The notes beneath the pieces were generated by a model. That model was given only the letters and a program-made list of their open reading frames with translations, was not told where the DNA came from and did no database searches. Below, in pieces: positions 46,366 to 64,000 of a stretch of 64,000 nucleotides of DNA. The DNA is taken from assembly GCA_964291395.2 (NCBI GenBank), contig OZ219856.1, positions 2,240,001 through 2,304,000 on the forward strand, in the 5' to 3' direction. Origin of the DNA: Alphaproteobacteria bacterium. GTDB taxonomy: Bacteria; Pseudomonadota; Alphaproteobacteria; UBA2966. Position 1 is the first letter of the stretch. Every line of letters starts with the position of its first letter. A program made the translations under genes and the position numbers.

Positions 46366-46374
46366 GATCGAACG

Positions 46375-48158: not shown

Positions 48159-48176
48159 GTGGCTGCGACCCCGCAA

Positions 48177-48860
48177 CTATTGATCGGCGTCGCCACGGGA
48201 CTCGCCGGTAATCCGAATTCCGGCACCGTCGATCTCGTAGGTTCTGTTCAGGAAGATCAGCACCGATGTCAGGGCCTCGGCCACTGCCGAGTTGTCCACG
48301 GGGCCCGCATGCCAACCCTTCATGCCGGCGGCTTCGACGAGTTCGAGCACCGTTTCACGTGCCGCCTTGTCGTTGCCGCTGACCAGGACGTCGCAATCGA
48401 TATCGTGCTCGATATTGGCCAAGTGGCCGGCCGCGACATTTTGAAAGGCTGAGACCACGCGTACATCCTCACCGAGAAACTCCTGCGATCTGCCCGCCGC
48501 AGACCCTTCGGGCGGCAACTGCACCCGGCTCACCTTGGGTGGCACGAGAGGTACCGTGACATCCACGAAAATCTTGCCTTGAACCGCGTCCTTGACGGTC
48601 TTGAGCATGACATGGTGATTGGCGAAGGGAACCGTGAGGACGACGATATCGGCGGCCGTCGCCGCCTCTACGTTTTCCAGTCCGCGCACAGTGCCCGAGA
48701 ACCCAAACTCCGTCAGTTTGTTGGCTGCGTCCTCCGCCTTCTCCCTGGTACGAGAGCCGATGGTAATGTCGTAACCTGCGTTGAGCCAACGGACGGCGAG
48801 ACCCCATCCGAGGTCGCCAGTGCCGCCGAGTATCGCGAGGGTGGGTCCGGTATCAGTCAT
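48177..48860 (-). CDS. npdG: NADPH-dependent F420 reductase (Fno)
   Basis: GGTGDLG, IGSR, VVSAFQNVAA, EALTSVLI; heads the cof operon. Confidence 0.92.
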   Translation of the reverse strand: MTDTGPTLAILGGTGDLGWGLAVRWLNAGYDITIGSRTREKAEDAANKLTEFGFSGTVRGLENVEAATAADIVVLTVPFANHHVMLKTVKDAVQGKIFVDVTVPLVPPKVSRVQLPPEGSAAGRSQEFLGEDVRVVSAFQNVAAGHLANIEHDIDCDVLVSGNDKAARETVLELVEAAGMKGWHAGPVDNSAVAEALTSVLIFLNRTYEIDGAGIRITGESRGDADQ

Positions 48861-49060
48861 TTCGTCTCCATGCCCAGTCAGCGCGGTGCCGACTTCTAGC
48901 ATCCCGGCACGGTCCGGAACACACCGGCGACGCCTCCCGATTCATCGGGGTCGGGCTTGGAGGCCAGCCCCATGCTACAGTCACGGCCACGAGGGCGGGA
49001 CCTTCCCTTACCAACGGGGGACGGACGATTCGGAATGCCTACGGTTTGAAGGACGACGAC

Positions 49061-50044
49061 ATGGAATTCGGCTTTTACCTCCCGACGCGCGGACCACTCA
49101 GCACACCCGAGCACATGACGGCGCTGGCCACCAGGGGCGAGGAGCTGGGCTACGGCTACATCGCCGTGACTGATCACGTCGTCGTGCCGCGCAGCGTGGA
49201 GTCCAGATACCCTTATACCGACCAGGGCGACTGGCCCGCGGCACGGTTCGGTGATTTCCACGACCAATTGACGGTTCTCGCCTATCTCGCCGGACAAACC
49301 AGCACGGCCCGCCTCCTGACTTCGGTCATGGTCGCGCCACATCGGGCACCGGTGCTCGCGGCAAAGATGTTGTCCACGATCGATGTCTTGTCACATGGTC
49401 GCCTCACGGTTGGCGTCGGCGCGGGTTGGTGCAAGGAGGAGTTCGAGGCAGTGGGGGCGCCACCGCATGCCGAGCGCGGCAAGGTCACCGACGAATATGT
49501 CCGCGTGTTCAGGGAACTTTGGAGCGCCGATGACCCGGAATTCCACGGCGACTACGCGGACTTCGCTGATATCACGTGCCTCCCCCGTCCCATCCAGCGG
49601 CCGGGACCGCCGATCTGGGTGGGGGGCGAAAGCAAGCCTGCCCTGCGTCGTGTCGTCCGGGTCGGCGACGGCTGGCTTCCCATCGCTCACAATCCGAACT
49701 TCCCCCTCGACACCCGTGAACGCTACGAGACGGCCCTGGGCGATTTGGGACGTCTCGCCGAAGATGCGGGAAGGAGCATAGACGACATCGAACTCGCCTT
49801 TTTCATCATGCAGTGGGGATCGGAACCCAGCGATCCCTTGCCGCCGATGGGCACGAACGGTCCGGCGACGGACGGGAACCGCCGCCTCATGACGGGGTCG
49901 GCGGAGCAGATGGCGGCGGACGTCAAGGCGTTGGAACGACTCGGCGTCACGGCGCTCACGCTGAGCTTCGAACGCTCGGGCCTTTCCGAAACCATGGATT
50001 GCATGGAAGCGTTCGCCCGCGACATCATCCCGCTTGCAGCCTAG
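49061..50044 (+). CDS. LLM class F420-dependent oxidoreductase
   Basis: DHVVVP, TSVMVAPHR, D.LSHGR, GAGW..EE, PPIWVGG; divergent from the cof operon. Confidence 0.88.
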   Translation: MEFGFYLPTRGPLSTPEHMTALATRGEELGYGYIAVTDHVVVPRSVESRYPYTDQGDWPAARFGDFHDQLTVLAYLAGQTSTARLLTSVMVAPHRAPVLAAKMLSTIDVLSHGRLTVGVGAGWCKEEFEAVGAPPHAERGKVTDEYVRVFRELWSADDPEFHGDYADFADITCLPRPIQRPGPPIWVGGESKPALRRVVRVGDGWLPIAHNPNFPLDTRERYETALGDLGRLAEDAGRSIDDIELAFFIMQWGSEPSDPLPPMGTNGPATDGNRRLMTGSAEQMAADVKALERLGVTALTLSFERSGLSETMDCMEAFARDIIPLAA

Positions 50045-50090
50045 ACGGCAGGCGCTCAAGGCCGCCGAAGCGCAGGACGGGGAGACCTGT

Positions 50091-51074
50091 ATGAAGATCG
50101 GGTTCTACGTTCCCACGCGGGGACCATTGAGCACGCCGGAGAACATGTCGGCCCTAGCCAGGAAGGGCGAGTCGCTTGGATTCGATTTCCTTTCCATGAC
50201 AGATCATCTGGTCGTGCCGCGAAGCCGAGTCTCGGACTATCCCTACACGAGAGACGGTAACTGGCTGCCGGGACTCTTCGGGGATTTCGTCGATCAACTC
50301 ACGGCCATGGCGTTCGTCGCCGGCCAGACAGAAACCGTCCGGCTGCTGACCTCGGTGCTCGTGCTGCCGCACCGGTCGCCTGTTCCGACCGCGAAAGCCC
50401 TCGCGAGTCTCGACTATCTGTCCGGAGGGCGTCTCTCCGTCGGTTGCGGAGCCGGATGGATGAAGGAGGAATTCGAGGCGGTGGGTGCCCCGCCGCACCC
50501 CGAGCGCGGGAGGGTCGCAGACGAATACATCCGAGTCTTCAAGGAGCTCTGGACCAACGACGATCCGGAATTTCACGGAGACTACGCGAATTTTTCCGAC
50601 ATTACGTTCGAGCCGAAACCCGTTCAGAAACCACACCCGCCGATCCTGATCGGCGGCGAGAGCCCGCCGGCCATGCGCCGTGCCGCGACACTGGGCGATG
50701 GCTGGATCCCCATGGCCCATAACACCAGGGTCCCCCTCGATACGTTCGAGCGGTTGAAGACCTATGTGAGCAAACTCCACGGACTCGCTGAAGGCGCCGA
50801 TCGTGACTCGACGTCGCTCCGGGTCACATGGTTCGTGCTGTGGTGGGGGACGGAACCGGGCGAGCCGCTCCAACCGATGGAAGCCGACGAACCGTTCCCG
50901 GGTGGCGCCCGTCGGCTCCTGAGCGGCAGCGCGCAGCAGATGAAGGACGACATGGCGGCAATGGAGGAAATCGGCGTCCAGTCCATCATCGTCAACTTCG
51001 AGCGGGAGACCATCGAGGCCTCGCTCGAAGGCATGGAGGCGTACGCGGCCGAGTTCATCCGGAAAGGCGCCTGA
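50091..51074 (+). CDS. LLM class F420-dependent oxidoreductase (paralog)
   Basis: DHLVVP, TSVLVLPHR, LSGGR, PKPVQKPHPPILIGG. Confidence 0.88.
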   Translation: MKIGFYVPTRGPLSTPENMSALARKGESLGFDFLSMTDHLVVPRSRVSDYPYTRDGNWLPGLFGDFVDQLTAMAFVAGQTETVRLLTSVLVLPHRSPVPTAKALASLDYLSGGRLSVGCGAGWMKEEFEAVGAPPHPERGRVADEYIRVFKELWTNDDPEFHGDYANFSDITFEPKPVQKPHPPILIGGESPPAMRRAATLGDGWIPMAHNTRVPLDTFERLKTYVSKLHGLAEGADRDSTSLRVTWFVLWWGTEPGEPLQPMEADEPFPGGARRLLSGSAQQMKDDMAAMEEIGVQSIIVNFERETIEASLEGMEAYAAEFIRKGA

Positions 51075-51203
51075 AGATCGGATCGGCGCAGCGCCGGTTG
51101 AAACCGAACCACGGCGGCGCTACGTGGATGGGAAAGCGGGCCCGCCCCACGGCACCGAACGCCCGTCGCGGGGCAACTGTGAGATCATGAAACTGGAAAC
51201 CCG

Positions 51204-52019
51204 ATGAACGAAGTCTCCAATGAGCCAATTCACGCCTACCACAACGAAGGATTCCTGGGCAGCAAGGACGCCCGGGCACTGCGAATCCTTTCCGAATATC
51301 TCGAACCCAACAGCCGGTTTCAGTACCATCATGTGGGCGACACGATCGTTTTAATGGGTTCCGCACGGATCCTGCCACGTGATGAGGCGCAAGCACGCCT
51401 GAAGCGCGCCGAGGCCGGTGACGGCGACCTGGGGCGAGCGCGTACCGATCTGGAGATGTCCCGATACTACGAAGCCTCTCGCACTCTGGCATCTCGGCTT
51501 ACCGAATGGTCGAAGACGCTCGACGAGAGCGAACGCCGCTTCGTCATCTGCACGGGCGGCGGCCCGGGCATCATGGAAGCGGGCAACCGGGGGGCCTCCG
51601 AAGCGGGTGGCATGAACGTCGGGCTCACCATCTCGATCCCCAAGGAGGAATTCAAGAACGAATACGTCACGCGGGAGCTGGGATTCCATTTTCACTACTT
51701 CTTCATGCGCAAGTTCTGGTTCACCTATCTCGCCAAGGCCGTCGTGGTTTTTCCCGGGGGCTATGGAACCCTCGATGAGCTGTTCGAGATCCTCACGCTG
51801 CTGCAAACGGGTAAGATCCGGAAACATCTGCCCGTGGTCCTGTTCGGGACCGGGTACTGGAACGAGGTGATCGATTTCGAGGCGCTGGCCAAGTACGGCT
51901 GTATCGACCGGGAGGACATCGACCTCGTCTTCCGAACGGACTCCGTCGACGAGGCCCAAGACTTCATCGTACGCGAACTGACCGAGCACGCGATCGGAGA
52001 ACCCGGCGCCATGCTGTAG
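51204..52019 (+). CDS. LOG family protein (nucleotide phosphoribohydrolase-like)
   Basis: GSAR, TGGGPGIMEA.N.GA, YFFMRK, PGGYGTLDE. Confidence 0.9.
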   Translation: MNEVSNEPIHAYHNEGFLGSKDARALRILSEYLEPNSRFQYHHVGDTIVLMGSARILPRDEAQARLKRAEAGDGDLGRARTDLEMSRYYEASRTLASRLTEWSKTLDESERRFVICTGGGPGIMEAGNRGASEAGGMNVGLTISIPKEEFKNEYVTRELGFHFHYFFMRKFWFTYLAKAVVVFPGGYGTLDELFEILTLLQTGKIRKHLPVVLFGTGYWNEVIDFEALAKYGCIDREDIDLVFRTDSVDEAQDFIVRELTEHAIGEPGAML

Positions 52020-52071
52020 TAGATACCGGTGCCGCTTGTGGAGGCTGCCCAATTCCCACCGGAAATCGAAC

Positions 52072-52641
52072 ATGAACCACGACCTCAAGCCATGGAAGCT
52101 TTTGGAATCACGGGAAGTCTTCGTGATTCCACGGCGCCTGAGCGTGTCGGCGCATGCGGTGGAACTGCCCAACGGCCGGCGCTATGAGCCGTATTACCGC
52201 GTCGACCTTGCCGACCAGGCCTGGGTCGCGGCCGTGACGAACGACGATCGGTTCATCTGCCAGCGCCAGTACAAGCACGGTCCGGGCCGCATTTCGTTGA
52301 CCCTTCCCGGCGGGATCGTCGATCCGGGAGAGGACCCCCTTGCCGCGGCCCGGAGGGAACTTCTGGAGGAAACGGGATACGCGTGCCAACACTGGCAACA
52401 TCTCGGCACATTCTGCCGCAACAACAACCAGTATTGCGGAGAAGAACATTTCTTCTGGGCAACTGGGGCCGAGTGGAAACAGGAGCCGGATCCGACTCCC
52501 AATCTCGAGGAAATCGAGACCGTGCTTCTGACGCGCGATGAACTCGCCGTCGCCGTAGCGGAAGGAGAAGCGCCGGTTCTTGGACATCTGGCCGGCATAT
52601 TGATGGCGCTCAACCGATCGGCGACGGGTCCGGACGCGTGA
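52072..52641 (+). CDS. Nudix hydrolase
   Basis: Nudix box GGIVDPGEDPLAAARRELLEETGY; RQYKH. Confidence 0.9.
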   Translation: MNHDLKPWKLLESREVFVIPRRLSVSAHAVELPNGRRYEPYYRVDLADQAWVAAVTNDDRFICQRQYKHGPGRISLTLPGGIVDPGEDPLAAARRELLEETGYACQHWQHLGTFCRNNNQYCGEEHFFWATGAEWKQEPDPTPNLEEIETVLLTRDELAVAVAEGEAPVLGHLAGILMALNRSATGPDA

Positions 52642-52677
52642 CGCCGCGCCCGAATCGTCCGTCCTAGAATCGCGATC

Positions 52678-53130
52678 ATGCGCGTAAGGCCGCGGCGACG
52701 GCGTCCCGCTCGGTATTTCGCATACGGCTCCAACATGCATGTATCGGGCATGCGCATCCGGTGCCCGCGAGCACGCCTCGTCGGCGCGGCGTCGTTACGG
52801 GACTGGGAGTTTTTCATCAACGCCCAGGGATATGCGTCGATCAGGCAGGTTCGAAACTCGACGGTGCATGGCGCGCTTTGGGCCATCGGACCGAGGGAAG
52901 AAACCGCCCTGGATCTCTATGAGGACATCTCGGATCGCCTGTACGAGAGAATCTCGATCGACGTCATCGCGTCGGAATCGGACTCCCGGCATGATGATGT
53001 CCTGACCTACGTGGCCACCGATCGACGGACAGGCCGGCCCCGCGCTGGATACATGCGGATCGTCCACGAAGCAGCCGCCAGCCTCGGCCTGCCAAAGGAC
53101 TATCGAGCGTTCCTTCGCACCTATGGTTAG
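52678..53130 (+). CDS. Gamma-glutamylcyclotransferase family protein
   Basis: YFAYGSNM, VHGALW, LDLYE, P..GY. Confidence 0.85.
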   Translation: MRVRPRRRRPARYFAYGSNMHVSGMRIRCPRARLVGAASLRDWEFFINAQGYASIRQVRNSTVHGALWAIGPREETALDLYEDISDRLYERISIDVIASESDSRHDDVLTYVATDRRTGRPRAGYMRIVHEAAASLGLPKDYRAFLRTYG

Positions 53131-53552
53131 GCGCCGGGTTCCAAATTTCCCCAACTCGTCACCTGCGCGACGCGGATGGCGATCACGGGGAGACCCTGCA
53201 AGGACATATCGCGCAGCTGGGGATACCTGTCGCGGAGGATCTCCTGCGCGCGGTCATGCTCGGTTCCGTCCTCGAGTATGTCGGCGTCCCCCCGCACCAT
53301 CACCCAACCCAGACGCTCCCAGTTCTCGTCGTATCGATCGACGACCAAGGCCACCGCGGGATTTTCCTCAATATTCCTGATACGCTTCAGAGGCCGCCCC
53401 GTCTTCGGTTTTTCGTCGATCGTGATGTATACGTTGCCCATTCCCACCGCGTAGCACACGGGCACGACGTGCGGCTGACCGGTGGCTTCGGCCGTTGCCA
53501 GCCGGCCCACACGATGACTTTCCAGGAATCCGCTTTGCAGCTCGTCGAACAC
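53127..53552 (-). CDS. PPOX class F420-dependent oxidoreductase (Rv0121-like)
   Basis: RVGRLATA..GQPHVVPVCY, IDEKPK, RIRNIEENP, DRYDENW..L.WV. GTG start inferred inside ORF 53127..54632. Confidence 0.85.
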   Translation of the reverse strand: MFDELQSGFLESHRVGRLATAEATGQPHVVPVCYAVGMGNVYITIDEKPKTGRPLKRIRNIEENPAVALVVDRYDENWERLGWVMVRGDADILEDGTEHDRAQEILRDRYPQLRDMSLQGLPVIAIRVAQVTSWGNLEPGA

Positions 53553-53654
53553 GGGTACTACCGTACCACGGTCGGCGATTCCCAGCGCTTCGGAGGTTTG
53601 CCCGGGCGGTACCCGCAGTGGCAAAGTATCCGGAAGCCCATCAAGGAGATCGCG

Positions 53655-54602
53655 ATGCAGTTCGGTTTCGGACTTCCGACTCGGGGTCCGCTCGCCAACC
53701 TCGACGGCGTGCGCACCATGGCGACACGAGGTGAAGAGCTGGGCTACGGCTATTTGACCGTTCCAGATCATCTCGTCATTCCGCGAACGTACGACCATGA
53801 GTATCCCTATTCCGACTCCGGCGAGATGCCGGGTGGAGGCTCGGGGGATTGTCTCGACCAACTGACCGTCATGACCTTCGCGGCGGCGATTACGACCAAG
53901 CCACGGCTTCTCACTTCGGTGCTGGTCGTTCCCCACCGGCCGGCGGTCTTGACGGCGAAGATGCTCTCGACCATCGACGTCCTGTCGAACGGACGTATCA
54001 GCGTCGGCGTCGGTGCCGGCTGGATGCGCGAGGAATTCGAGGCGCTCGGTGCGCCGCCCCATGCCGAACGGGGCAAGGTCACCAACGAATACATCCGGGC
54101 GTTCAAGGAACTGTGGACCGAGGACAGTCCGTCCATGCAGGGGGATTACGTCAATTTCTCGGATGTCATCTTCGAACCCAAGCCCGTCCAGAAGCCGCAC
54201 CCGCCGATCTTCGTCGGGGGCGAGAGCGGCCGGGCCCTGCGCCGCACGGTCGAGTTGGGTGACGCCTGGTACCCCCTCGGGGCGAACCCCAGGAACCGCA
54301 TGGACACGCGCGAACGCTACAAGGCCAACGTCGAAAGGCTCCATGCGCTCGCGACCGAGAGGGGTCGCGATCCTTCCACCATTACGCTGGCTTTCTGGGC
54401 CAATTGGGCCGGCGTGACCGAAACCGAGGCCGACGACGGCAGCCGCCGCCTGTTCATGGGCTCGCCGGAGGAAATCGCCAGCGACGTCGAATTCTTCCGC
54501 GAGATGAACGTCAGCGTGCTCAACTTCAATTTTCTCAGCCCGAGCCTGAGCGAAACGCTCGAGAAGATGGACCAATACGCGAAGGACATCCTCGCCCTGT
54601 AA
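53655..54602 (+). CDS. LLM class F420-dependent oxidoreductase (third paralog)
   Basis: MQFGFGLPTRG, DHLVIP, TSVLVVPHR; AGGAG SD. Confidence 0.88.
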   Translation: MQFGFGLPTRGPLANLDGVRTMATRGEELGYGYLTVPDHLVIPRTYDHEYPYSDSGEMPGGGSGDCLDQLTVMTFAAAITTKPRLLTSVLVVPHRPAVLTAKMLSTIDVLSNGRISVGVGAGWMREEFEALGAPPHAERGKVTNEYIRAFKELWTEDSPSMQGDYVNFSDVIFEPKPVQKPHPPIFVGGESGRALRRTVELGDAWYPLGANPRNRMDTRERYKANVERLHALATERGRDPSTITLAFWANWAGVTETEADDGSRRLFMGSPEEIASDVEFFREMNVSVLNFNFLSPSLSETLEKMDQYAKDILAL

Positions 54603-54713: not shown

Positions 54714-55391
54714 CTACTGGTTCGCGGGGACGTAGTCTTCGAGGTAGCCGACCACCTCGCTCACGGGGACGACGTCGGCATACTTCTTGGCCATATCGTA
54801 AAGGTTCTGGAAATGCGGGCTCTCGTGCACATCTGCGACGCACTCCTCTGGCACGATGGTGCGGTAGCCGTGCTGCACGCTGTCGAGCACGGTTGAGCGG
54901 ATGCACCCGGAGGTCGAACCGCCGGTGACGATCACCGTGTCGATGCCGTACCAGACGCAGAGCGACGGCAAGTGCGTCTGGAAGAACGCCGACGCCCCCA
55001 CCTTTCGGTAGATCACGTCGCGGCTCCCGTCGACGGTCAGGCGGGGATCGAGCTCGGCCATCTTCGAGCCGATCTTTATGTTCTGCAGGGCGGTCGGGCT
55101 GTCGCTGCGGGTGCCCCGCACGCCGCAGTCGTGTCCGTTTTCCATGTAGGCCACATAGCACCACACGACCGGTAATCCCTTTGACCGCGCAATCCCGCAG
55201 ATCTCGTTGATGTAGTCCATCTGCTTGGGATCGGTGGAATAGGCGGAGTCGTATTCCTCTTCGAGCGTGAAGGCGCTCTGCACGTCGACGTTGACGATCA
55301 TGGGCTTGCGGCCAAAGCCGAATCTGCGCCGCGGCGGCGCCGACTTCAGATCCTCATACATCTGCCGGGCTGTCTTATTGGATAGTTCCAT
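54714..55391 (-). CDS. Isochorismatase family cysteine amidohydrolase (NicF/N-carbamoylsarcosine amidase-like)
   Basis: Asp-Lys-Cys triad: VDVQ, KVGASAFF, TSGC. Confidence 0.88.
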   Translation of the reverse strand: MELSNKTARQMYEDLKSAPPRRRFGFGRKPMIVNVDVQSAFTLEEEYDSAYSTDPKQMDYINEICGIARSKGLPVVWCYVAYMENGHDCGVRGTRSDSPTALQNIKIGSKMAELDPRLTVDGSRDVIYRKVGASAFFQTHLPSLCVWYGIDTVIVTGGSTSGCIRSTVLDSVQHGYRTIVPEECVADVHESPHFQNLYDMAKKYADVVPVSEVVGYLEDYVPANQ

Positions 55392-55436
55392 GGCTCCGCC
55401 TTTCCTGGGAATCCGACGTTGTTCGTGAATGGTCGG

Positions 55437-56360
55437 CTATGCCTGTTCCTTGCAGGTGTCCAGAATTTCCGCCCCCGTGGCGGGCCAGACGCCGTCATGT
55501 CCGAGAATGTAGTCCAAGGCCTCTTTGAGATACCGGGCCCGGTAGGGATGCCCCATCACCCACGGATGCAGGGTGATCGACAGAATCCGTCCGCCGTATT
55601 GCCCGGCCTCGGCGTAAAGCACGTCGAACTGATCCTTGATCTGCTGCACGAATTCCGCCTCACGGTGGTGGAAGCGGAGCAGCACCTCCCGGTCGTCGAG
55701 TTCCACCGTGTGAGGCATGGCGAAGAGATTGCCGTCCTTCGTCCTGAAGGGGTACGGCATGTCGTCATTGCACCAATCGCACTGGTACTCAATGCCGTTC
55801 GCGGCCAGAAGGTCGGGGGTGTTGTCCGATTCGGACTTGCCGATGGACAACCAGCCGCGGACCGGCTGGCCCGTCGACTTGCGCAAAGACTCGACGCTGT
55901 CCTTGACCCAGTCGGCCTCCAGCTTCTCGTCCATACCCCCGTAGTGCATGCAGCCCATGTGCACGCCGTGGGCCATGACCTCCCACTCCCGCTTGTTGAT
56001 CTCTTCGACAACGCCGGGATAGCGCTCTCCGACCGCTGAATTCACCGCCACTGAGGCCTTGATTCCGAGTTCATCGAAAAGCTTGAAAAAGCGGAAAATA
56101 CCGACCCGCAAGCTGTAATCGCGATGGGAGTAATTCCGGTAGTCGGGATAGGGCCTGTTGAAGCCGCCGGGCGGCGGCACGGGCCCGGCCTTCATGTCCA
56201 TCGGGAACCATTGCAGCAGCGGCGTGATCCACAAGGCCACGCGCGCGTCGTTCGGCCATGTGACGGGCTTCTTGCGGAACAGGATCTCCCAGTCGTAGCG
56301 GTCGTGGTCCATCCCGTAGCCGCGGATCGGGTACCTGAGATAATCGTCGGGCAGGCTCAT
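55437..56360 (-). CDS. Polysaccharide deacetylase (CE4)/PuuE-like hydrolase
   Basis: WPNDARVALW, SHRDY.LRVG, AHG, GWLS, DDMP, LHPW..G.PYR. Confidence 0.85.
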   Translation of the reverse strand: MSLPDDYLRYPIRGYGMDHDRYDWEILFRKKPVTWPNDARVALWITPLLQWFPMDMKAGPVPPPGGFNRPYPDYRNYSHRDYSLRVGIFRFFKLFDELGIKASVAVNSAVGERYPGVVEEINKREWEVMAHGVHMGCMHYGGMDEKLEADWVKDSVESLRKSTGQPVRGWLSIGKSESDNTPDLLAANGIEYQCDWCNDDMPYPFRTKDGNLFAMPHTVELDDREVLLRFHHREAEFVQQIKDQFDVLYAEAGQYGGRILSITLHPWVMGHPYRARYLKEALDYILGHDGVWPATGAEILDTCKEQA

Positions 56361-56364
56361 GGCG

Positions 56365-57282
56365 TCACTCCGCGGTGGCGGCCGATTGCGCCGCGACGAC
56401 GTTGTCGTAGTGGTGTTCGAAGTAGTACTCGGCGATCTCGCGCCCCGTCGTCACCCAGACGTCGTCGTGACTGGTGACGTATTCGAGCGCCTCGGCGAAC
56501 GGCCCGACACGGTGCGGCTGGCCGACGAGGAACGGATGCAGCGGAATGCACATGACGGTGCCGTTCTCGGCCCCTTCCTCGTAGAGCTGATCGAACTGCC
56601 GCTTGATCACCTCGGTGTACTGACGCGGCGGGCTCGAGTTGATCTGGTGGTAGACCACGATGTCGTTCATCTCCAGCGAGTAGGGAATACTGATCAGCCG
56701 GCCTCTCTTGACCTTGACGGGCTGCGGCTGGTCGTCGTGGAAGAGGTCGCACGTGTAGAGGACTTCGTACTCGGCCAGCAGGTCGAGCGTCTGCTCGGTA
56801 TTGCTCAGCGCCGGTGACAGCCAGCCGGCCAGCTTCTGGCCGGACGCCTTCTTGATGGTCTCGATCACGTCCTCGATGAGTTCACGGTGCTGCGCCTCGC
56901 TCATGCCGTACTGGTAGCGGGTGTTGTAGACGCCGTGGGAGAACAGTTCCCAGTCGCGCTCGACGCAGGCCTCGATGATCTCGGGATGATGGTCGCAAAC
57001 GGCCACGTTGAGGGATACGCTGCCGCGTACGCCGTAGCGGTCCATCGCCTCCATCATGCGCCACACGCCCACCCGGTTTCCGTAGTCGCGGTGGGAGTAG
57101 AAGACGACGTCCGGCGCCGGCCTCGACATGTCCTGACGCGTCGGATTGGGCGGCGGATAGGTTTCGTAGAACTCGATATTGGGCGCGACCCAGAAGGCGA
57201 CGCGGGCGCCGTTCGGCCAAGTGATCTTCGGCCGGTTGTTGTACGGCGAATACTCGTAGATGCCGGGATCGCTGAGCGTCAC
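56365..57282 (-). CDS. Polysaccharide deacetylase (CE4)/PuuE-like hydrolase (paralog)
   Basis: WPNGARVAFW..PNIE, SHRDYGNRVG, SHG, DDQP, LHPFLVGQPHR. Confidence 0.87.
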   Translation of the reverse strand: MTLSDPGIYEYSPYNNRPKITWPNGARVAFWVAPNIEFYETYPPPNPTRQDMSRPAPDVVFYSHRDYGNRVGVWRMMEAMDRYGVRGSVSLNVAVCDHHPEIIEACVERDWELFSHGVYNTRYQYGMSEAQHRELIEDVIETIKKASGQKLAGWLSPALSNTEQTLDLLAEYEVLYTCDLFHDDQPQPVKVKRGRLISIPYSLEMNDIVVYHQINSSPPRQYTEVIKRQFDQLYEEGAENGTVMCIPLHPFLVGQPHRVGPFAEALEYVTSHDDVWVTTGREIAEYYFEHHYDNVVAAQSAATAE

Positions 57283-57293
57283 GGTTCTCCTCC

Positions 57294-57968
57294 CTAGTCG
57301 TTCGCTGGAACGTACTCGTTGAGATGGTCGATCACCTCCCCGGCAGGTATCACATCAGCATACTTTGCCGCCATATCGTAGAGGTTGGCGAAATGCGGGC
57401 TCTCGTGCCGGTCCGAGGTGCATTCCTCGGGAACCACGGTGCGATAGCCGCTCTGCAGACTGTCCACCACGGTCGCACGCACGCAGCCGGAGGTCGACCC
57501 GCCGGTAACGATCATGGTGTCGGTCCGGTACCACACGCAGAGTGATGGCAAGTGCGTCTGGAAGAACGCCGACGCACCCCGTTTGTTGAAGACAATATCG
57601 TTGTCGCGGTCGACATGGCAGCGATCGTCGAGCTCCGCCTTGCGCGAGCCGACCTTGATGTTCTGCAAGGCATCGTCGTGCTGGTTCCGGGTCCCCCAGA
57701 CGCCGCAGTCATCGGCGTTCTCCATGTAGGCCACGTAGGTCCACACGACGGGCAGGTTCTTCGACCGGGCGATGTCGGAGATCTCGTTGATGTAGTCGAT
57801 CTGCTTCGGGTGCGTCGAATAGGCGGACGTGTAGTCGTCCTCCAGCGTGAAGGACTTCTGAACGTCGACATTGACGACCATCGGCCGCCTGCCGAAACCG
57901 AAACGCGGCTTCGGGTTGGCCTTGAGCTCCTCCCACATCTGACGAGCTGTCTTGTCCGAGAGTTCCAT
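57294..57968 (-). CDS. Isochorismatase family cysteine amidohydrolase (close paralog of 54714..55391)
   Basis: Same MELS.KTARQM start; VDVQ, KRGASAFF, TSGC. Confidence 0.88.
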   Translation of the reverse strand: MELSDKTARQMWEELKANPKPRFGFGRRPMVVNVDVQKSFTLEDDYTSAYSTHPKQIDYINEISDIARSKNLPVVWTYVAYMENADDCGVWGTRNQHDDALQNIKVGSRKAELDDRCHVDRDNDIVFNKRGASAFFQTHLPSLCVWYRTDTMIVTGGSTSGCVRATVVDSLQSGYRTVVPEECTSDRHESPHFANLYDMAAKYADVIPAGEVIDHLNEYVPAND

Positions 57969-58095
57969 GGTCGCCCCTTCCTGTTCGTACCGCACATCGC
58001 GATCACGTTGCGCCTTGCGGTAACGTTACCGGGGCCGGACGGGGGTGGTAAAGTCGCTCCACGTCACCGGAACACACTTTCAGGAGCCCGAGACC

Positions 58096-58986
58096 GTGAC
58101 AGACAGCGCTACTGCGGCCTTCCGCCGGTTGCTCGCCGGACCCGACGTCATCATGGCGCCGGGCGCGCCGGACCCATTTTACGCCAGACTCGTTGCCCGC
58201 ACAGGGTTTCCGGCCGTCTACATGACCGGCGCGGGCACGACGGCCGTACGCCTCGGCATGCCCGATATCGGCCTCCTGACGATGACGGAAATGGTTGATA
58301 ACGCGGCACGCATCGTGGATGCCTCGGGGTTGCCCGTCATCGCCGATTGCGACAACGGCTATGGCGGACCGCTGAACGTCCGACGCGCGATTCAGAGCTA
58401 TGAGCGGGCCGGGGTCGCCGCCATTCACATGGAAGACCAGATCATTCCGAAGCGTTGCGGCCACTTCAGTGGAAAGCAGCTCGTTTCGGCAGAGGAGATG
58501 GTGACCAAGATCAAGGCGGCGGTCGATGCGAAGGCGGATTCCGATTTCGTCGTCATCGCCCGCACCGACGCCATCGCGGTGGAAGGGTTCGATGCGGCGA
58601 TGGACCGCGCCGCCATGTATGAAGAGGCTGGCGCCGACATGCTCTTCGTCGAAGCACCGACGGACACCAGGCAAATGGCGAAGATCGGAAACAGCTTCGG
58701 CGTCCCGCACGTCGCCAACCTGGCGTCGAGCCGCAAGACACCGCTGCTGCCCGCCGAGGAACTGGGGAAGCTCGGGTTCAAGCTCGTGATCTATCCCGGC
58801 TTGCTCCTGCTTTCGACGATCCGCGCGGCATTGAGTTGCCTCGATCATCTCAAGGAAAAGCGGACCTGGGCCGGCATGGAGGCAGACCTGCCCACCTTCG
58901 ACGAGATGCTCACCCTCATGGGGATGGAGGAGGTGGAGTCGCTCGAAGAACGTTACGCGCTTCCCGAACAAGGAGGAACGCGATGA
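58096..58986 (+). CDS. Isocitrate lyase/PEP mutase family protein (second copy)
   Basis: DCDNGYG, EDQIIPKRCGH, IARTDA; GTG after CAGGAG. Confidence 0.88.
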   Translation: MTDSATAAFRRLLAGPDVIMAPGAPDPFYARLVARTGFPAVYMTGAGTTAVRLGMPDIGLLTMTEMVDNAARIVDASGLPVIADCDNGYGGPLNVRRAIQSYERAGVAAIHMEDQIIPKRCGHFSGKQLVSAEEMVTKIKAAVDAKADSDFVVIARTDAIAVEGFDAAMDRAAMYEEAGADMLFVEAPTDTRQMAKIGNSFGVPHVANLASSRKTPLLPAEELGKLGFKLVIYPGLLLLSTIRAALSCLDHLKEKRTWAGMEADLPTFDEMLTLMGMEEVESLEERYALPEQGGTR

Positions 58987-59984
58987 AAGTCGGCGTCTTC
59001 CTAGGCAGCCAGCATCCGCCCGAAGCGGACATCCGTCGGGAGTTCGAGCACACGGTCGAACAGACGCGCGCCATCCGCGACGCCGGTTTCGATTCGTTGT
59101 GGCTGGGACAGCACTACCTCACCTATCCCAACCAGTTCCTGCAGACCACGCCCCTGCTCGCCCGCCTGGCGGCGGAGACCGGCGATATGGCCGTCGGCAC
59201 CAACATGATCCTGCTGCCGCTGCACAACGTCGTCGATATCGCCGAACAGTATGCGACGATGGATGTCATCTCGGGGGGGCGCCTGATCCTGGGTGTCGGG
59301 CTCGGGTACCGCGACATCGAATTCCAGGGGCTCGCTGCCGACCGCGAGACGCGGGCGCCGCGGTTCGAAGAGCAGATCACCGCCCTGAAGCTGCTCTGGG
59401 AGGAGGACGACGCCACTTTCGAGGGCGAGCACGTCAAGTTCAAAAACCTCTCGATCCGCCCGAAGCCGCTGCAGAAGCCCAGGCCGGAGATCTGGATCGG
59501 CGCCACCGCGGATCCCGCCATCAAGCGCGCCGCGCGGATGGGCGACGCCTGGGCCGGGACCTCGGTCACGACGTTCGGCGAGATCAAGCGGCAGTTGCCC
59601 GTCTACCATCAGGCCCGCGAGGAGGCCGGCCTGCCGCCGCCCCAAGACATCGCCCGCAACGTCGAGGTCTTCGTCGCCGAGACTCGCGAGAAGGCCTGGG
59701 AAGAAGGCGGGCAGTACATCGCCAGGAAATTCGAGACCTACTTTTCCTGGGGCATGGACAAGAACATCGGCGACGACGGAAACGCGGAGATGTCCCTCGA
59801 AGACCTTGCGGAAGACAGGTTCATCGTCGGCGATCCCGAGGACTGCATCCGCGGCTGCCTCCAACACCGGGATGCGGGCATCACCCATCTGCAGATCCGC
59901 CTCAACTTCCCCGGCATCCCTCACGCCTCGGTGATCAGGGCGATCGAGCTATTCGGCGCGAAAGTCCTGCCGCGCCTGCGATAG
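58983..59984 (+). CDS. LLM class flavin- or F420-dependent oxidoreductase
   Basis: LGQHY, D.ISGGR..LGVGLGYR, PKPLQKPRPEIWIG; ATGA overlap with the upstream gene. Confidence 0.85.
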   Translation: MKVGVFLGSQHPPEADIRREFEHTVEQTRAIRDAGFDSLWLGQHYLTYPNQFLQTTPLLARLAAETGDMAVGTNMILLPLHNVVDIAEQYATMDVISGGRLILGVGLGYRDIEFQGLAADRETRAPRFEEQITALKLLWEEDDATFEGEHVKFKNLSIRPKPLQKPRPEIWIGATADPAIKRAARMGDAWAGTSVTTFGEIKRQLPVYHQAREEAGLPPPQDIARNVEVFVAETREKAWEEGGQYIARKFETYFSWGMDKNIGDDGNAEMSLEDLAEDRFIVGDPEDCIRGCLQHRDAGITHLQIRLNFPGIPHASVIRAIELFGAKVLPRLR

Positions 59985-60053
59985 GAGATCCTCACCCGGC
60001 CGAGGATGCTGCCCTTCGGGCACCCGGAATAGAGCCAGGGTGAGGGCGCGCGC

Positions 60054-60815
60054 CTATCCCCGCGTCTCCTTTCCGGCCCGGAGCATGGCGTGGATCATGT
60101 CCGGGTGCGGGTCGAGGGGCTTGGGATAGGCCTTGCGGCTGTGCGTGAGTTTGAGGTCGAGGACCGACTCGACGAGCTTGTAGGTGAGCGGACCCGGATT
60201 GACGACGGGGATCGGCAAGGTCTCGGCCAGATACTCTGCCGCCTGGTGCATGGTCGTCGAACCCAGGCAGACCACGTCCGCGCCTGCCGCCATCGCCTCC
60301 TCGCAAGCGGCCTTCATCTTCGGAAAGACCTTGTCCTCCTTGCCGTCGAGCAGGTTGGCGTAGTCCGGCGGCACGTCGAAGTTTACCACCGCGGCACAGA
60401 AGTCCTCGAGCCCGAGCGCGCGGATCATCTTGGTGGTCCGCGCGACGGCGTAGTCCCACTGACAGATGATGGAGAACTTGTTGCCGAGCGTCAGGCAGAA
60501 CAGCATCGCTGCCTTCCCCGGCGCGATGACCGGAATATCGAGCACCGACCTGAGCGCATCGAGACCCGAATCGCTCATGGTATCGATGCAAACGGCGTCG
60601 TAACCCTCGTCCTGCGCGCTCAACCCGGCCTCGAAGATCGCCATGTCCATGAGCACGAAATCGTGGGGACTCATATAGCTCTTCGGGCCCGCCGTAACGC
60701 CGCGGAAGTCGAATTCGACATCCGGGCCCAGGCGGACATAATCGAGCTGGGCGCGCCGATTGGCGATGCCGCTTTCATCGAGCGCGAACGGCACCAGAAC
60801 CAAAGCCTTGGCCAT
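60054..60815 (-). CDS. Asp/Glu/hydantoin racemase family protein
   Basis: GYDAVCIDTMSDSG..ALR..LDIPV, GADVVCLGSTTM, PVVNPG. Confidence 0.82.
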   Translation of the reverse strand: MAKALVLVPFALDESGIANRRAQLDYVRLGPDVEFDFRGVTAGPKSYMSPHDFVLMDMAIFEAGLSAQDEGYDAVCIDTMSDSGLDALRSVLDIPVIAPGKAAMLFCLTLGNKFSIICQWDYAVARTTKMIRALGLEDFCAAVVNFDVPPDYANLLDGKEDKVFPKMKAACEEAMAAGADVVCLGSTTMHQAAEYLAETLPIPVVNPGPLTYKLVESVLDLKLTHSRKAYPKPLDPHPDMIHAMLRAGKETRG

Positions 60816-60857
60816 GGCTTTTCTCCTTTCCCGGAAGGCCGGCCCCGGAGGACGGTC

Positions 60858-61637
60858 CTATGGGTTCTTCTGTACCTCGACCGCGCCGTCCAGCATGGCG
60901 CGAAGCGTCTCGTCGACCCGCACGATAGGCGGCTTGTAGTACTGACGGCTATGCGAGAGACCCAGCCCGAGCACGGCTTCGGCAAGCTTGTAGGACACCG
61001 GACCCGGATTGATGATCGGCACGGGTATCTTGCCGGATAGATGCACGTGAGCCTGGTGCATCGAGGTCGATCCGAGACAGATGACGTCGGCGCCACGGTC
61101 GTTGATCAGAGCCCAGCAACCCTCCTCAAGCTGCCCGAAGGTCTCCTCCTCCTTGCCGCTGAGCAGGTTCCGGTTGTCCACAGCCGCGTCGATGCTATGC
61201 ACGCCCACGAACTTGTGGCCGATACCAAGCTCTTCCAGAGTCTTTTTGTAGAGCCCCGACCAGCGCTCCCACATCGCCAACACGCCGAACTTGTCCCCGA
61301 GCAGCATGGCCAGCAGGAACGACGCCCGCCCTGGACCGATAACGGGAATATCGAGAACGGTCCGCAGCGCGGCAACGCCGGAGTCGCTGACGGTGTCGAT
61401 GCACACGGCGTCGTAACCATCCTCCTGGGCGCTGAGGCCCGCTTCGAGAACGACGATGTCGCCGATGCTCCAGTCATAGGGGCTCACCAGGTTGCCGCCC
61501 GCCGCGCGGACCGGCCGGTAGTCGAATTCGATGTCGGGGCCGAAATCGAGCGAGGCGTGCTGCTGTTGCCGGAACCCGAGCTGTTCCTCCGTCATCGGGA
61601 ACGGAACAATGACCAAGACTCTCTTCTTTCTCGCCAC
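60858..61637 (-). CDS. Asp/Glu/hydantoin racemase family protein (paralog)
   Basis: GYDAVCIDTVSDSG, GADVICLGSTSM; GTG after GGGAGG. Confidence 0.82.
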   Translation of the reverse strand: MARKKRVLVIVPFPMTEEQLGFRQQQHASLDFGPDIEFDYRPVRAAGGNLVSPYDWSIGDIVVLEAGLSAQEDGYDAVCIDTVSDSGVAALRTVLDIPVIGPGRASFLLAMLLGDKFGVLAMWERWSGLYKKTLEELGIGHKFVGVHSIDAAVDNRNLLSGKEEETFGQLEEGCWALINDRGADVICLGSTSMHQAHVHLSGKIPVPIINPGPVSYKLAEAVLGLGLSHSRQYYKPPIVRVDETLRAMLDGAVEVQKNP

Positions 61638-61826
61638 GGGAACCTCCCTGTCCTGCATCGCCACGCGTATAGCGCGTGGCGCCAGCACGGAATTACAGGG
61701 TAGCCGCCAAGGGAGTCAACGCGGCCGCCGTATCGGAGTCGGCCGGTGACTGGTTGGGTGGGAAACGTGCGCGTTATAGTGATCCTGGAATTCGACGTGC
61801 GACCAGCCGATGGAGAGGACACAGCG

Positions 61827-63224
61827 ATGGGAATCATCAGATCCGGTGACCGGTTGTTCGACATCTCCGTTCCCGTTGCCGTGATCGGAGCCGGCGCCTG
61901 CGGCTGCAGCGCGGCGCTGGCCGCGAACGAACGCGGCGCCGGCGTTCTGATGATCGAGCGCGACGATCCGCCGGCGGGCAGCACATCCCTGTCCGGCGGA
62001 CAGATTCCCGCCGCCGGCACCAGGCTCCAGAAGGCGGCGGGCATCGACGACACGCCGGAGGATTTCGCCGAGGAGATACTCGAGAAGGCGCGGCATCAAA
62101 CCGACGCGGAGATGGCGCTCGCCGTCTCTCGTGGCTCTACCGTGACCGTGGATTGGCTGGTCGACACCTACGGCGCGCCGCTGGAGGTCCTGACCGATTT
62201 CTTCTACCCCGGCCACAAGAAGCACCGCATGCACGGCACGCCCAACCGGGATGGCGCCGAATTGCTGACCTGCCTCCTCGAGGCGGTCTCGCGCGAAGGG
62301 ATCGACATGCTGACGGCCGCGGTGGCCACCGACCTCTACGCCGACGAGGACGGCAAGGTCACGGGCGTGCGCATCCGGCGCCCGGACGGGAGCAGTGAGG
62401 ACGTCGGTTGCGGCGCCCTGGTCTTGGCCTGCAACGGATTCGGCGGTAGTCCTGAGATGGTCAGGGAGTACATACCGGAGATCGCCGATGCTCTCTACTT
62501 CGGTCACGTGGGCAACAAGGGAGACGCGGTGAAGTGGGGTTTGGAGCTCGGTGCCGACATCGCCGACATGGGCAGCTACCAGGGCCACGGCGCCGTCGCG
62601 ACGCCCCACAACACGCACATCGGCTGGCCCTCGATCACCGAGGGCGGGATCATGGTCAACACGGATGGCAAGCGCTTCAGCCACGAGAACCGGGGCTATT
62701 CCGAACAAGCCATCGAGGTCATCCGCCAGCCCGGCAACTTCGCCTGGACGATCTTCAACGAGACCGCCCACGACGTCGCCATGCAGTTCAACCACCAGCG
62801 GGAGTCGGTGGAGGCCGGCGCGGTCCGCGTGGCGGAAACCTTCGACCAACTGGTGGAGGTCACCGAGCTGCCCGAAGATGCGCTGGCCGAGACCATCGCC
62901 GAGGTCAACGATATCCTGGCAGGAAGGAAGACCGACCCCTTCGGCCGGGACTTCGGCGGCAAGGCGCCGTTGGAACCTCCGTACTACACGGTCAAGGTGA
63001 CCGGAGCTCTCTTCCACACCCAGGGCGGTCTGGTCATCGACCCCGAAGCACGGGTCCTGCGCAGGGGCACCAGGCAGCCGCTGCCCAATCTGTTCGCAGG
63101 GGGCGGCGCCGCACGCGGCCTCACCGGTCCGTCTTGCTGGGGCTACACCTCCGGTGCCGGCCTGATGACCGCGACCACGCTCGGCCGGCTCGGCGGCGAA
63201 GGCGCCGCCGCGATCGTCTCCTGA
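61827..63224 (+). CDS. FAD-binding oxidoreductase (flavocytochrome c/TcuA/KstD-like FAD_binding_2 family)
   Basis: GAGACG, STSLSGG, ACNGF, VNTDGKRF..E, HTQGGL, LFAGG. Confidence 0.85.
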   Translation: MGIIRSGDRLFDISVPVAVIGAGACGCSAALAANERGAGVLMIERDDPPAGSTSLSGGQIPAAGTRLQKAAGIDDTPEDFAEEILEKARHQTDAEMALAVSRGSTVTVDWLVDTYGAPLEVLTDFFYPGHKKHRMHGTPNRDGAELLTCLLEAVSREGIDMLTAAVATDLYADEDGKVTGVRIRRPDGSSEDVGCGALVLACNGFGGSPEMVREYIPEIADALYFGHVGNKGDAVKWGLELGADIADMGSYQGHGAVATPHNTHIGWPSITEGGIMVNTDGKRFSHENRGYSEQAIEVIRQPGNFAWTIFNETAHDVAMQFNHQRESVEAGAVRVAETFDQLVEVTELPEDALAETIAEVNDILAGRKTDPFGRDFGGKAPLEPPYYTVKVTGALFHTQGGLVIDPEARVLRRGTRQPLPNLFAGGGAARGLTGPSCWGYTSGAGLMTATTLGRLGGEGAAAIVS

Positions 63225-63237
63225 CCCGGAGACCGCC

Positions 63238-64000
63238 ATGAGCTGGGACATCGAAACGGACGTCGCCGTCGTCGGCGGTGGCGGCGCCGGCCTCATGGCA
63301 GCCTCTACCGCGGCGTCGGTGGACGACGGTGTCGACGTGATCCTGCTCGAAAAGGATTCCGACGACCCCTGCACGTCCGTCATCACCAGCAGTTTCATTC
63401 CGGCGGCGGGCACCCGGCTGCAGCGAGCCGCCGGCATCGAGGATTCACCGGAGATCATGGCCGGCGATATCCTCAGAAAGAACGGCCACAAGAGCGATCA
63501 AGACGTGACGCTGGCGTTATGCCGCCGCTCCGCCGAGATGATCCACTGGTTCATCGACGGACTCGGTGTCGACCTCGAGTTCGCGCCCGAGGTCGCGTGG
63601 TTCGGACACACCAACAAGCGAATGCACAGCCATCCGACGCGCATCGGCGTGCCCATCGTCGACCGCATGCGCGAATACTTCACATCGCTCGACAACGCCA
63701 CCTATCACGATAGGACACCCGGAACGGGGTTGGTCGTCGATGACGCGGGTACGGTCCTGGGCGTCACGGCGGAACGAAGCGGCACCGGGATTCGGATCGC
63801 GGCCAGGAAGGTCGTGCTCACCACCGGCGGGTTCAATGCCAACCGAGAGATGCTGGCCCAATACATCCCCGATATGGCCGACGCCCCCAACATCGGCTCG
63901 AAGTCCAACACGGGCGAAGGCATCCTCTGGGGCATGGAAGCCGGGGCCGCGACGGATCGGATGACGGGTTATCAGGGCCGCGACTGTATCTTCGAGGACG
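63238..64000 (+). CDS. Second FAD_binding_2 family oxidoreductase (runs off the right window edge)
   Basis: Manual translation MSWDIETDVAVVGGGGAGLMAA...FIPAAGTRLQRAAGIEDSPE...LTTGGFNAN...NTGEG; paralog of the upstream gene. Not in the ORF track. Confidence 0.85.
   Translation, partial: MSWDIETDVAVVGGGGAGLMAASTAASVDDGVDVILLEKDSDDPCTSVITSSFIPAAGTRLQRAAGIEDSPEIMAGDILRKNGHKSDQDVTLALCRRSAEMIHWFIDGLGVDLEFAPEVAWFGHTNKRMHSHPTRIGVPIVDRMREYFTSLDNATYHDRTPGTGLVVDDAGTVLGVTAERSGTGIRIAARKVVLTTGGFNANREMLAQYIPDMADAPNIGSKSNTGEGILWGMEAGAATDRMTGYQGRDCIFED

Follow-up and report, generated by a model that had tools for sequence, protein, structure and literature searches.

What does a bacterium degrade with a cluster that encodes two isochorismatase-like amidases, two CE4-like proteins, a lyase, two racemase-fold proteins and several flavoproteins? 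The question is raised by the end of a stretch of 64,000 nucleotides, hereafter the window, from an alphaproteobacterium of the UBA2966 lineage (assembly GCA_964291395.2, contig OZ219856.1, positions 2,240,001 to 2,304,000 of the forward strand). The 9-kb block starts at window position 54714 and continues past the window end at 64000. A first-pass annotation of the DNA alone had seen in it a paired-enzyme cluster for an uncharacterised N-heterocycle or amide pathway, and the ten genes it listed, in the order it gave them, were all recovered with Pfam and NCBIfam. We propose, with moderate confidence, that the block serves the catabolism of a small ring acid that contains nitrogen, the likeliest candidate being a substituted cyclic imide of the succinimide or maleimide type. 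The general logic put forward then, ring hydrolysis followed by deamidation and C-C cleavage, is still the best reading of the cluster. The conserved unit is smaller than the block first described: it is a triad made of one isochorismatase-like amidase (Iso) and two CE4-like proteins, in the order Iso-CE4b-CE4a.

The triad was delimited by scanning a collection of one genome per species with CE4b, which gave at least 599 matching stretches, at least 584 of which encode a relative. The loci compared are the best 80 of these relatives, that is the top scorers and no random sample, with 63-93% identity in CE4b; according to their record titles they belong to Alpha-, Beta- and Gammaproteobacteria, Rokubacteria, Acidimicrobiia and Thermomicrobiales. 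CE4a directly follows CE4b in 75 of the 76 loci with room for it, and in 72 of 75 an Iso gene precedes CE4b in the same orientation (L037, L054 and L068 depart from this). In the window the triad occupies the minus strand, with IsoA2 at 57294-57995 (likely true start at 57968), CE4b at 56365-57282 and CE4a at 55437-56360, followed by a second amidase gene, IsoA1, at 54714-55391; the three gaps measure 11, 4 and 45 bp. Since orthologues with 63-93% identity were found in the 80 fetched loci, the reading frames of the block are real genes and not chance open reading frames (ORFs).

CE4a and CE4b were aligned with the true PuuE of this genome, which reaches 425 bits on the PuuE equivalog TIGR03212 (cut-off 424.6 bits). 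Both proteins stay far under this cut-off (138.8 bits and 1.8e-40 for CE4b, 119.9 bits and 1e-34 for CE4a), and they match the Pfam family Polysacc_deac_1 with E-values of 1.5e-7 (CE4b) and 5.2e-5 (CE4a). The solved structures matched by CE4b are the PuuE allantoinases 1z7a (7e-33) and 3cl6 (1.4e-32) and the entry 3s6o (1.2e-27); PMC11424739 gives the latter as a template 91% identical to the imidase BpIH, and describes roles for one glutamate and two histidines that are proposed for PuuE and assumed for BpIH. These PuuE-type residues (Glu37, His116 and His249) are kept in 81/81 CE4b sequences, while the position of the tryptophan in the PuuE triad Glu-His-Trp is occupied by asparagine in all 81. 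The canonical metal triad of CE4 enzymes, Asp-His-His, is replaced by Glu-His-Asn, here again in 81/81 sequences. CE4b also carries an invariant His-His-Pro-Glu motif (region of residues 97-101) that is missing from the true PuuE of this genome. In CE4a the three PuuE-type positions vary among the 78 sequences: the first is Glu in 50 and Gln in 28, the second His in 34, Asn in 39, Gly in 4 and Ser in 1, and the third His in 62, Asn in 11, Ile in 4 and a gap in 1. The complete Glu/His/His set is found in 14 of the 78, and the copy in the window reads Gln-His-His. At the three positions of the metal triad, CE4a sequences have Gln or Glu at the first, His or Asn at the second and Met at the third. 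The mean pairwise identity is 0.58 for CE4a versus 0.68 for CE4b; the N-terminal arm of CE4a is conserved, with Arg13, Met17, Asp18 and Tyr22 invariant.

The complex of CE4b with CE4a was modelled from our own alignments and scored an ipSAE of 0.84 (0.84, 0.83 and 0.85 in the individual runs) versus 0.00 for the best of three controls. For calibration, 116 of 157 solved complexes and 2 of 215 mismatched pairs attained this mark. The runs share at least 97% of their contacts and the partner has a predicted local distance difference test (pLDDT) score of at least 93. On the CE4b side the modelled interface comprises residues 38-47, 97-101 (the His-His-Pro-Glu motif), 118-119 and 255-261, which flank Glu37, His116 and His249; on the CE4a side it comprises residues 1-28. 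The model supports a heteromer, the binding of CE4b to CE4a being itself a prediction. We read these data as pointing to CE4b as the catalytic subunit and to CE4a as a degenerate partner that would lie against the active-site regions of CE4b; judging from its residues, CE4a is probably non-catalytic.

The second element of the triad is the amidase. IsoA1 and IsoA2 match the Isochorismatase family PF00857 (6.6e-25 and 6.8e-27; 88.6 and 95.1 bits for a cut-off of 27), and the Asp-Lys-Cys triad, as defined in PMC5806882, is invariant in 70/70 Iso orthologues. On these sequence grounds both are assigned to the isochorismatase-like cysteine hydrolases. IsoA2 matches the structure 4l07 at 1.1e-35 and N-carbamoylsarcosine amidohydrolases at 3.2e-30 and 1e-25; with NicF (3ot4/3uao, 4.7e-17) it aligns over the C-terminal half only. 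We take 4L07 to be the maleamate amidase of a nicotine degrader; its PDB title reads only 'hydrolase, isochorismatase family', and nothing in the open literature on this entry confirmed its identity. Neither copy reaches the equivalogs RutB (30.9-31.6, cut-off 377.95) or BiuH (26.8-28.4, cut-off 370). The two copies are 71% identical to each other. A quick tree placed IsoA1 as sister to an IsoA2 clade formed by this genome and the loci L003 and L004 (support of 99 in the Shimodaira-Hasegawa-like approximate likelihood ratio test, SH-aLRT), on a long branch that raised a warning. IsoA2 is accordingly taken as the putative amidase of the triad and IsoA1 as a predicted lineage-specific extra copy, so that the mirror-like A-B-B'-A' arrangement is a triad with one recent extra amidase. 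As a single phenomenon, the pairing of enzymes that had drawn attention to the block dissolves: the CE4 pair is an old two-subunit unit, the Iso pair a lineage-specific duplicate, and the pair of flavoproteins described below is adjacent only here.

Divergent from the amidase operon, over a spacer of about 76 bp, lies the gene for a lyase (58045-58986, plus strand) that matches PF13714 (3.2e-49, 168.1 bits for a cut-off of 31.5). Its catalytic loop reads KRCGH, and the form K[KR]CGH was found in 34 of 35 locus-linked homologues; with the PF13714 match, this loop assigns the predicted protein to the isocitrate lyase (ICL)/phosphoenolpyruvate (PEP) mutase superfamily. Its structural matches are methylisocitrate lyases (about 1e-60), petal death protein and the 2,3-dimethylmalate lyase 3fa3 (3e-55). 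On the prpB model TIGR02317 it scores 281.6 bits, under the cut-off of 354.4. A second gene of the family, 42% identical, is present in the window at 24608-25474 on the minus strand; as it scores 293.8 on the same model, also under the cut-off, neither copy is a clear PrpB.

The genes that accompany the triad were counted by clustering all ORFs of the 80 loci and of this locus and by running Pfam on the cluster representatives. The counts, taken within 10 kb, are lower bounds because many loci stop at contig ends. The ICL-family lyase comes first (35/81 loci), followed by LeuD-like (28/81) and LeuC-like (27/81) proteins, FAD_binding_2 proteins (20/81), a Leu/Ile/Val-type binding protein (17/81), TctC (16/81), racemase-fold proteins (14/81), a GntR/UTRA regulator (13/81), SnoaL-like proteins (12/81), two clusters of PrpD-like proteins (9/81 and 6/81) and TauD (6/81). 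A compact form, with a GntR gene and Iso-CE4b-CE4a-LeuC-LeuD-ABC transporter-ICL-FAD, was found in L012, L017 and L039. LeuC and LeuD of such an extended cluster (L012, 11857-13927) exceed the curated leuC and leuD cut-offs, and automatic annotation would consequently label both as leucine-biosynthesis genes. In the extended clusters, the binding protein shows likeness to Leu/Ile/Val-binding proteins alone and gave no information on the substrate. Six Burkholderiales loci (L055, L058, L059, L061, L072 and L081) carry a third CE4b-like gene with 47-51% identity and all have SnoaL-like genes; a distant CE4a-like gene (about 31% identity) and PrpD-like genes are present in L055, L058, L072 and L081, and a racemase-fold gene in L058, L059, L072 and L081.

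These data bear on the explanation that the ordinary annotations hold. The CE4 proteins would then deacetylate polysaccharides or peptidoglycan, the Iso proteins would be isochorismatases and the lyase would be the methylisocitrate lyase of propionate breakdown, and the genes would have no pathway in common. The Pfam names read this way and prpB is the best model of the lyase. We nevertheless regard this explanation as very improbable: the Asp-His-His of CE4 deacetylases is replaced in all 81 CE4b sequences, no signal peptide was seen in the N-terminus (judged by eye only), the lyase stays under the prpB cut-off, prpC, prpD and acnD are absent from the block, and the gene order is kept across phyla.

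For the cyclic-imide pathway that we favour, we infer the order of the steps, the substrate class and the roles of the accessory proteins FAD1, LLM1, Rac1 and Rac2. In a first step, a metal-independent, PuuE-like hetero-oligomer of CE4b and CE4a would open the ring to give a half-amide. IsoA2, together with its duplicate IsoA1, would then free ammonia and leave a substituted dicarboxylate. If this acid is saturated, FAD1 could dehydrogenate it; a hydratase of the LeuCD type would add water to yield a substituted malate, a reaction that in this genome would fall at best to the housekeeping leucine enzyme. Finally, the KRCGH lyase would cleave this malate, giving a 2-oxo acid along with a carboxylic acid. 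That no gene matches a known route, as the first-pass annotation had concluded for the nic, puu and rut pathways, was borne out, since none exceeds the equivalog cut-offs of the nic, puu, rut and biuret models; the nic, Rut and biuret pathways were rejected as candidates on this basis. A more specific version of the pathway can be imagined, in which the triad encodes a novel type of two-subunit, metal-free imidase heading a widespread and so far undescribed bacterial route for carboxyalkyl- or alkyl-substituted maleimides and succinimides released by the oxidation of chlorophyll, haem and bilins. The candidate substrates would be monopyrroles, for instance haematinic acid, methyl-ethyl-maleimide or methyl-vinyl-maleimide; a double bond of the ring or side chain would be adjusted by the FAD enzyme, and the hydratase and lyase would produce pyruvate and a second acid. 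We offer this version as speculation and consider it rather unlikely.

Isomerisation had been listed among the steps of the pathway. The racemase-fold proteins were compared with the known thiol enzymes of their family. Rac1 (60054-60815) and Rac2 (60858-61688), both on the minus strand, match Asp_Glu_race (PF01177) at 5.3e-26 and 4.4e-28 and are 44% identical; the Rac2-Rac1 pair recurs in L004, L027, L063 and L064. Their sole solved relatives are hydantoin and allantoin racemases (3qvj/3qvk at 2e-12 for Rac1). In both proteins the two catalytic cysteine sites of the two-thiol racemases and maleate isomerases are occupied by threonine (17/17 sequences) and serine (16/16), within the strictly conserved motifs AVCIDTMSDSG and LGSTTMHQ. 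Lacking the cysteine pair, Rac1 and Rac2 cannot act as two-thiol racemases, and isomerisation by the known thiol mechanisms is not supported. Looking up Rac1 in the Protein Atlas yielded nothing more specific than racemase-family clusters with generic or wrong names.

A different chemistry has been weighed against the imide. The ring could be a hydantoin or a dihydropyrimidine, CE4b/CE4a a metal-free hydantoinase, and Iso an enzyme comparable to N-carbamoylsarcosine amidohydrolase that frees CO2 and ammonia to leave an amino acid whose stereocentre is handled by the Rac proteins. PuuE itself opens a hydantoin ring and PuuE allantoinases are the best solved relatives of CE4b; the matches of IsoA2 to N-carbamoylsarcosine amidohydrolases and the solved relatives of Rac1 and Rac2 go in the same direction, as do genes for hydantoinase A and B a few kb downstream and aminotransferases encoded close to the triad in one marine clade (8 loci). 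Against it, the commonest accessories, the LeuCD-type hydratase and the ICL-type lyase (27-35/81 loci), act on dicarboxylic acids and not on amino acids, both catalytic cysteines are missing from Rac1 and Rac2, and CE4b reaches 139 bits for a PuuE cut-off of 425 in a genome that has a true PuuE elsewhere. Pfam detected no allantoate or ureidoglycolate enzymes within the block. We judge this ureide chemistry unlikely: with a hydratase and a lyase as accessories, a dicarboxylate is the more plausible product, and hence an imide is favoured over a ureide. The purine/allantoin pathway proper was rejected, as CE4b and CE4a are far under the PuuE cut-off, the true PuuE is encoded elsewhere and genes for allantoate and ureidoglycolate are lacking.

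The remaining genes of the block encode oxidoreductases. LLM1 starts at 58983 and ends at 59984 on the plus strand; its ATG overlaps the stop codon of the lyase gene (ATGA) and is preceded by the Shine-Dalgarno sequence AAGGAGG, and its translation is therefore predicted to be coupled to that of the lyase. It matches Bac_luciferase (PF00296, 6.1e-55), scores 162.7 on the F420 family TIGR03619, just under the cut-off of 166.9 (the neighbouring luciferase-like (LLM) gene at 53256-54602 scores 227), and has both FMN and F420 enzymes among its PDB neighbours; it is most simply described as a putative luciferase-like flavin or F420 oxidoreductase. An orthologue (85%) was found in a single one of the 80 loci, L003. 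FAD1 (61746-63224, plus strand, likely start 61827) matches FAD_binding_2 (PF00890, 2.7e-50), the structure 1qo8 (5.8e-54) and urocanate reductase (7.5e-45), and stays under the cut-offs of TIGR01813, the flavocytochrome c/soluble fumarate reductase family (246.9, cut-off 285.45), and of TcuA (156.5, cut-off 369). Its sequence indicates a flavoprotein like fumarate reductase, TcuA and KstD, and it is the copy that recurs with the triad elsewhere; FAD1-type genes adjoin the lyase gene in 13 loci. FAD2 (63238-64614, plus strand; PF00890, 4.4e-55 on the full gene) runs past the window end and was completed using the DNA beyond it, which also revealed a DJ-1/PfpI gene outside the window (64626-65231), 3' of FAD2. 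FAD2 is 36% identical to FAD1 and is beside the triad in 0/80 loci.

How much of the block belongs together was judged from the other loci. The first-pass annotation had asked whether its combination of genes is conserved elsewhere, and this held in part: Iso, CE4b, CE4a, ICL, FAD1 and the racemase-fold genes, seven families in all, occur together in the distant loci L027, L041 and L063, with 51-64% identity to the genes here (L027 and L063 have the Rac2-Rac1 pair, L041 a single copy), and it failed for LLM1, present only in L003, and for FAD2 and the DJ-1 gene, which are found in 0/80 loci. LLM1, Rac and FAD1 are not conserved at this position in the two closest relatives; part of the 9-kb block is thus a local mosaic. 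An extreme version of this idea would restrict the functional unit to ICL and the Iso-CE4b-CE4a-Iso operon, with LLM1, Rac1/Rac2, FAD1/FAD2 and DJ-1 serving other substrates in a pile-up of paralogues. The two nearest relatives, L003 and L004 (92-93% CE4b identity), indeed keep ICL, the four-gene amidase operon and a nearby F420-type LLM and differ in all that lies beyond; in their genomes the orthologues of FAD1 and FAD2 show no linkage to the triad or to one another. In the 4.16-Mb genome studied here the PuuE model has 14 matches, of which just one, located elsewhere in the genome, exceeds the cut-off; the genome also has four Rac paralogues, several FAD paralogues and many TauD and LLM paralogues. 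We give this version little credence, for in distant lineages the triad is accompanied by FAD1-type and Rac-type genes with 51-64% identity (for example in L027, L041, L063, L050 and L077), FAD1-type genes neighbour the lyase as stated above, and the LLM1 start overlaps the lyase stop codon. Among this genome and its two nearest relatives FAD1 and FAD2 are adjacent only here, the FAD2 orthologue (82%) in a relative being found at a third place, apart from that of FAD1; FAD2 and DJ-1 are taken as local additions and may lie outside the pathway.

Several observations weigh against the cyclic-imide pathway as a whole. A dedicated hydratase was not found in this genome, where the sole LeuCD is encoded beside leuB and asd in a leu operon on contig C3. 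Homo-oligomeric relatives of the CE4 proteins have already been solved, so the score of the complex model may stem from likeness to them; the catalytic roles of the PuuE residues are themselves only proposed, so that degeneracy is no proof of an inactive CE4a, and the 14 CE4a sequences with all three residues point the same way. The amidase Iso matches N-carbamoylsarcosine amidohydrolase almost as well as it matches 4l07, which keeps the ureide chemistry alive. At the locus itself, L003 has LLM1 with neither Rac nor FAD within 7 kb, and L004 has Rac2-Rac1 with neither LLM1 nor FAD1; the FAD1 orthologues (86% and 91%) of these two genomes are separated from the triad by about 55 kb and by more than 1 Mb. 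Compared by eye with 1qo8, FAD1 keeps two histidines and has no equivalents of the arginine and glutamate positions; as we only presume which of these residues matter for fumarate reduction, the reaction of FAD1 is uncertain.

From strands and gaps, the block comprises four transcription units: IsoA2-CE4b-CE4a-IsoA1, ICL-LLM1, Rac2-Rac1 on the minus strand and FAD1-FAD2-DJ1 on the plus strand (with 13 and 11 bp between the genes); the short gaps, the ATGA overlap and the spacing of the last unit fit operons. The block had also been said to adjoin F420 genes, and these do lie immediately upstream, at 43235-54602: a full set with a fused CofG/H-like (fbiC-like) radical-SAM gene, cofC, cofD and cofE, accompanied by an F420-dependent NADP oxidoreductase, three TIGR03619-type LLMs and a TIGR03668 PPOX-class gene. 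The genome that carries them has nearest relatives labelled Alphaproteobacteria. Downstream of the DJ-1 gene, at the window-equivalent positions 67619-71405 (L001, 13619-17405), are found hydantoinase/oxoprolinase A and B, a ComA-like gene, an aldo-keto reductase, a Rieske oxygenase and a TPR protein. Some 20 kb beyond the end of the window (L002, 4747-9720), the gene for a molybdopterin subunit of the xanthine-dehydrogenase family stands beside a FAD_binding_2-like stretch and a PuuE-like CE4 gene, which may form a further N-heterocycle module. L003 carries amidase-signature, enolase-superfamily and DUF1611 genes in place of Rac and FAD. A second pair of the CE4b/CE4a type is encoded elsewhere in the genome (C1:2096389-2098292; L092, 8438-10371), with 61% and 48% identity to the pair in the window; no amidase lies beside it, MMPL and RND efflux genes flank it, and the pair offered no hint of the substrate. 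Almost all sequencing runs that contain half or more of the sampled words are labelled sponge metagenome. Contigs from RNA libraries (four runs, three studies) span portions of the block with shallow coverage (29/30 bins for X17, 16 for X18, 14 for X19 and 10 for X20); because RNA libraries can hold DNA and contigs show neither level nor strand, this coverage was not counted as evidence of expression.

The occurrence of the triad in at least 584 species records from several phyla, with no assigned substrate, suggests that it gives access to an unrecognised but common source of nitrogen and carbon in water, soil and host-associated settings. In open-access papers and on bioRxiv, neither this gene set nor a PuuE-like heteromer was found described; a description may exist in subscription papers. 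If the CE4 pair consists of a catalytic subunit and a pseudo-enzyme, it would be, within the literature searched, the first hetero-oligomeric member of the PuuE/imidase group, whose enzymes are used in industry for the enantioselective hydrolysis of imides, as described in PMC11424739. The Thr/Ser proteins form a conserved subfamily of the racemase fold. The residue counts in the CE4 proteins, a complex prediction with controls, this Thr/Ser subfamily and the instability of the accessory set among close relatives are what the present analysis adds.

PuuE is a homotetramer. With PuuE, BpIH, CIH and the fungal HxnM, CE4b shares a CE4/NodB fold devoid of the metal triad and the glutamate and both histidines (81/81); it differs from the PuuE/imidase group by the Trp to Asn replacement in 81/81 sequences and by its pairing with a degenerate paralogue in 75/76 loci. 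BpIH is described as a homo-oligomer in PMC11424739. The fungal pathway outlined in bioRxiv 10.1101/2021.08.17.456622 uses the PuuE/CE4-like imidase HxnM and then the amidase HxnN, a combination of ring hydrolase and amidase as in the triad. Iso shares Asp-Lys-Cys (70/70) with NicF (3UAO), 4L07/4L08, N-carbamoylsarcosine amidohydrolase, RutB and BiuH; IsoA1 and IsoA2 are far below the RutB and BiuH cut-offs, and NicF aligns to the C-terminal half only. Nicotinate fermentation in Eubacterium barkeri ends with dimethylmaleate hydratase and 2,3-dimethylmalate lyase. The lyase family and a LeuCD-type hydratase partner (27-28/81 loci) are shared with this pathway; there the ring is opened by an enamidase, here it would be opened by a CE4 hydrolase, and the window holds no hydratase gene. 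PrpB methylisocitrate lyase belongs to the same family as the cluster lyase, with structural matches near 1e-60, and the cluster lyase is under the prpB cut-off. Hydantoin and allantoin racemases (3QVJ, 5LFD) share the fold of Rac1 and Rac2, and both of their cysteines are Thr and Ser here. The cyclic-imide pathway of Blastobacter sp. consists of an imidase and a half-amidase, the imidase being described as dihydropyrimidinase-like and not as a CE4 protein. The logic of this pathway, from ring to half-amide to dicarboxylate, is the same as the one proposed here. Catabolism by an imidase and an amidase is already known as a kind, and we read the cluster as a variant of it with a two-subunit CE4 enzyme.

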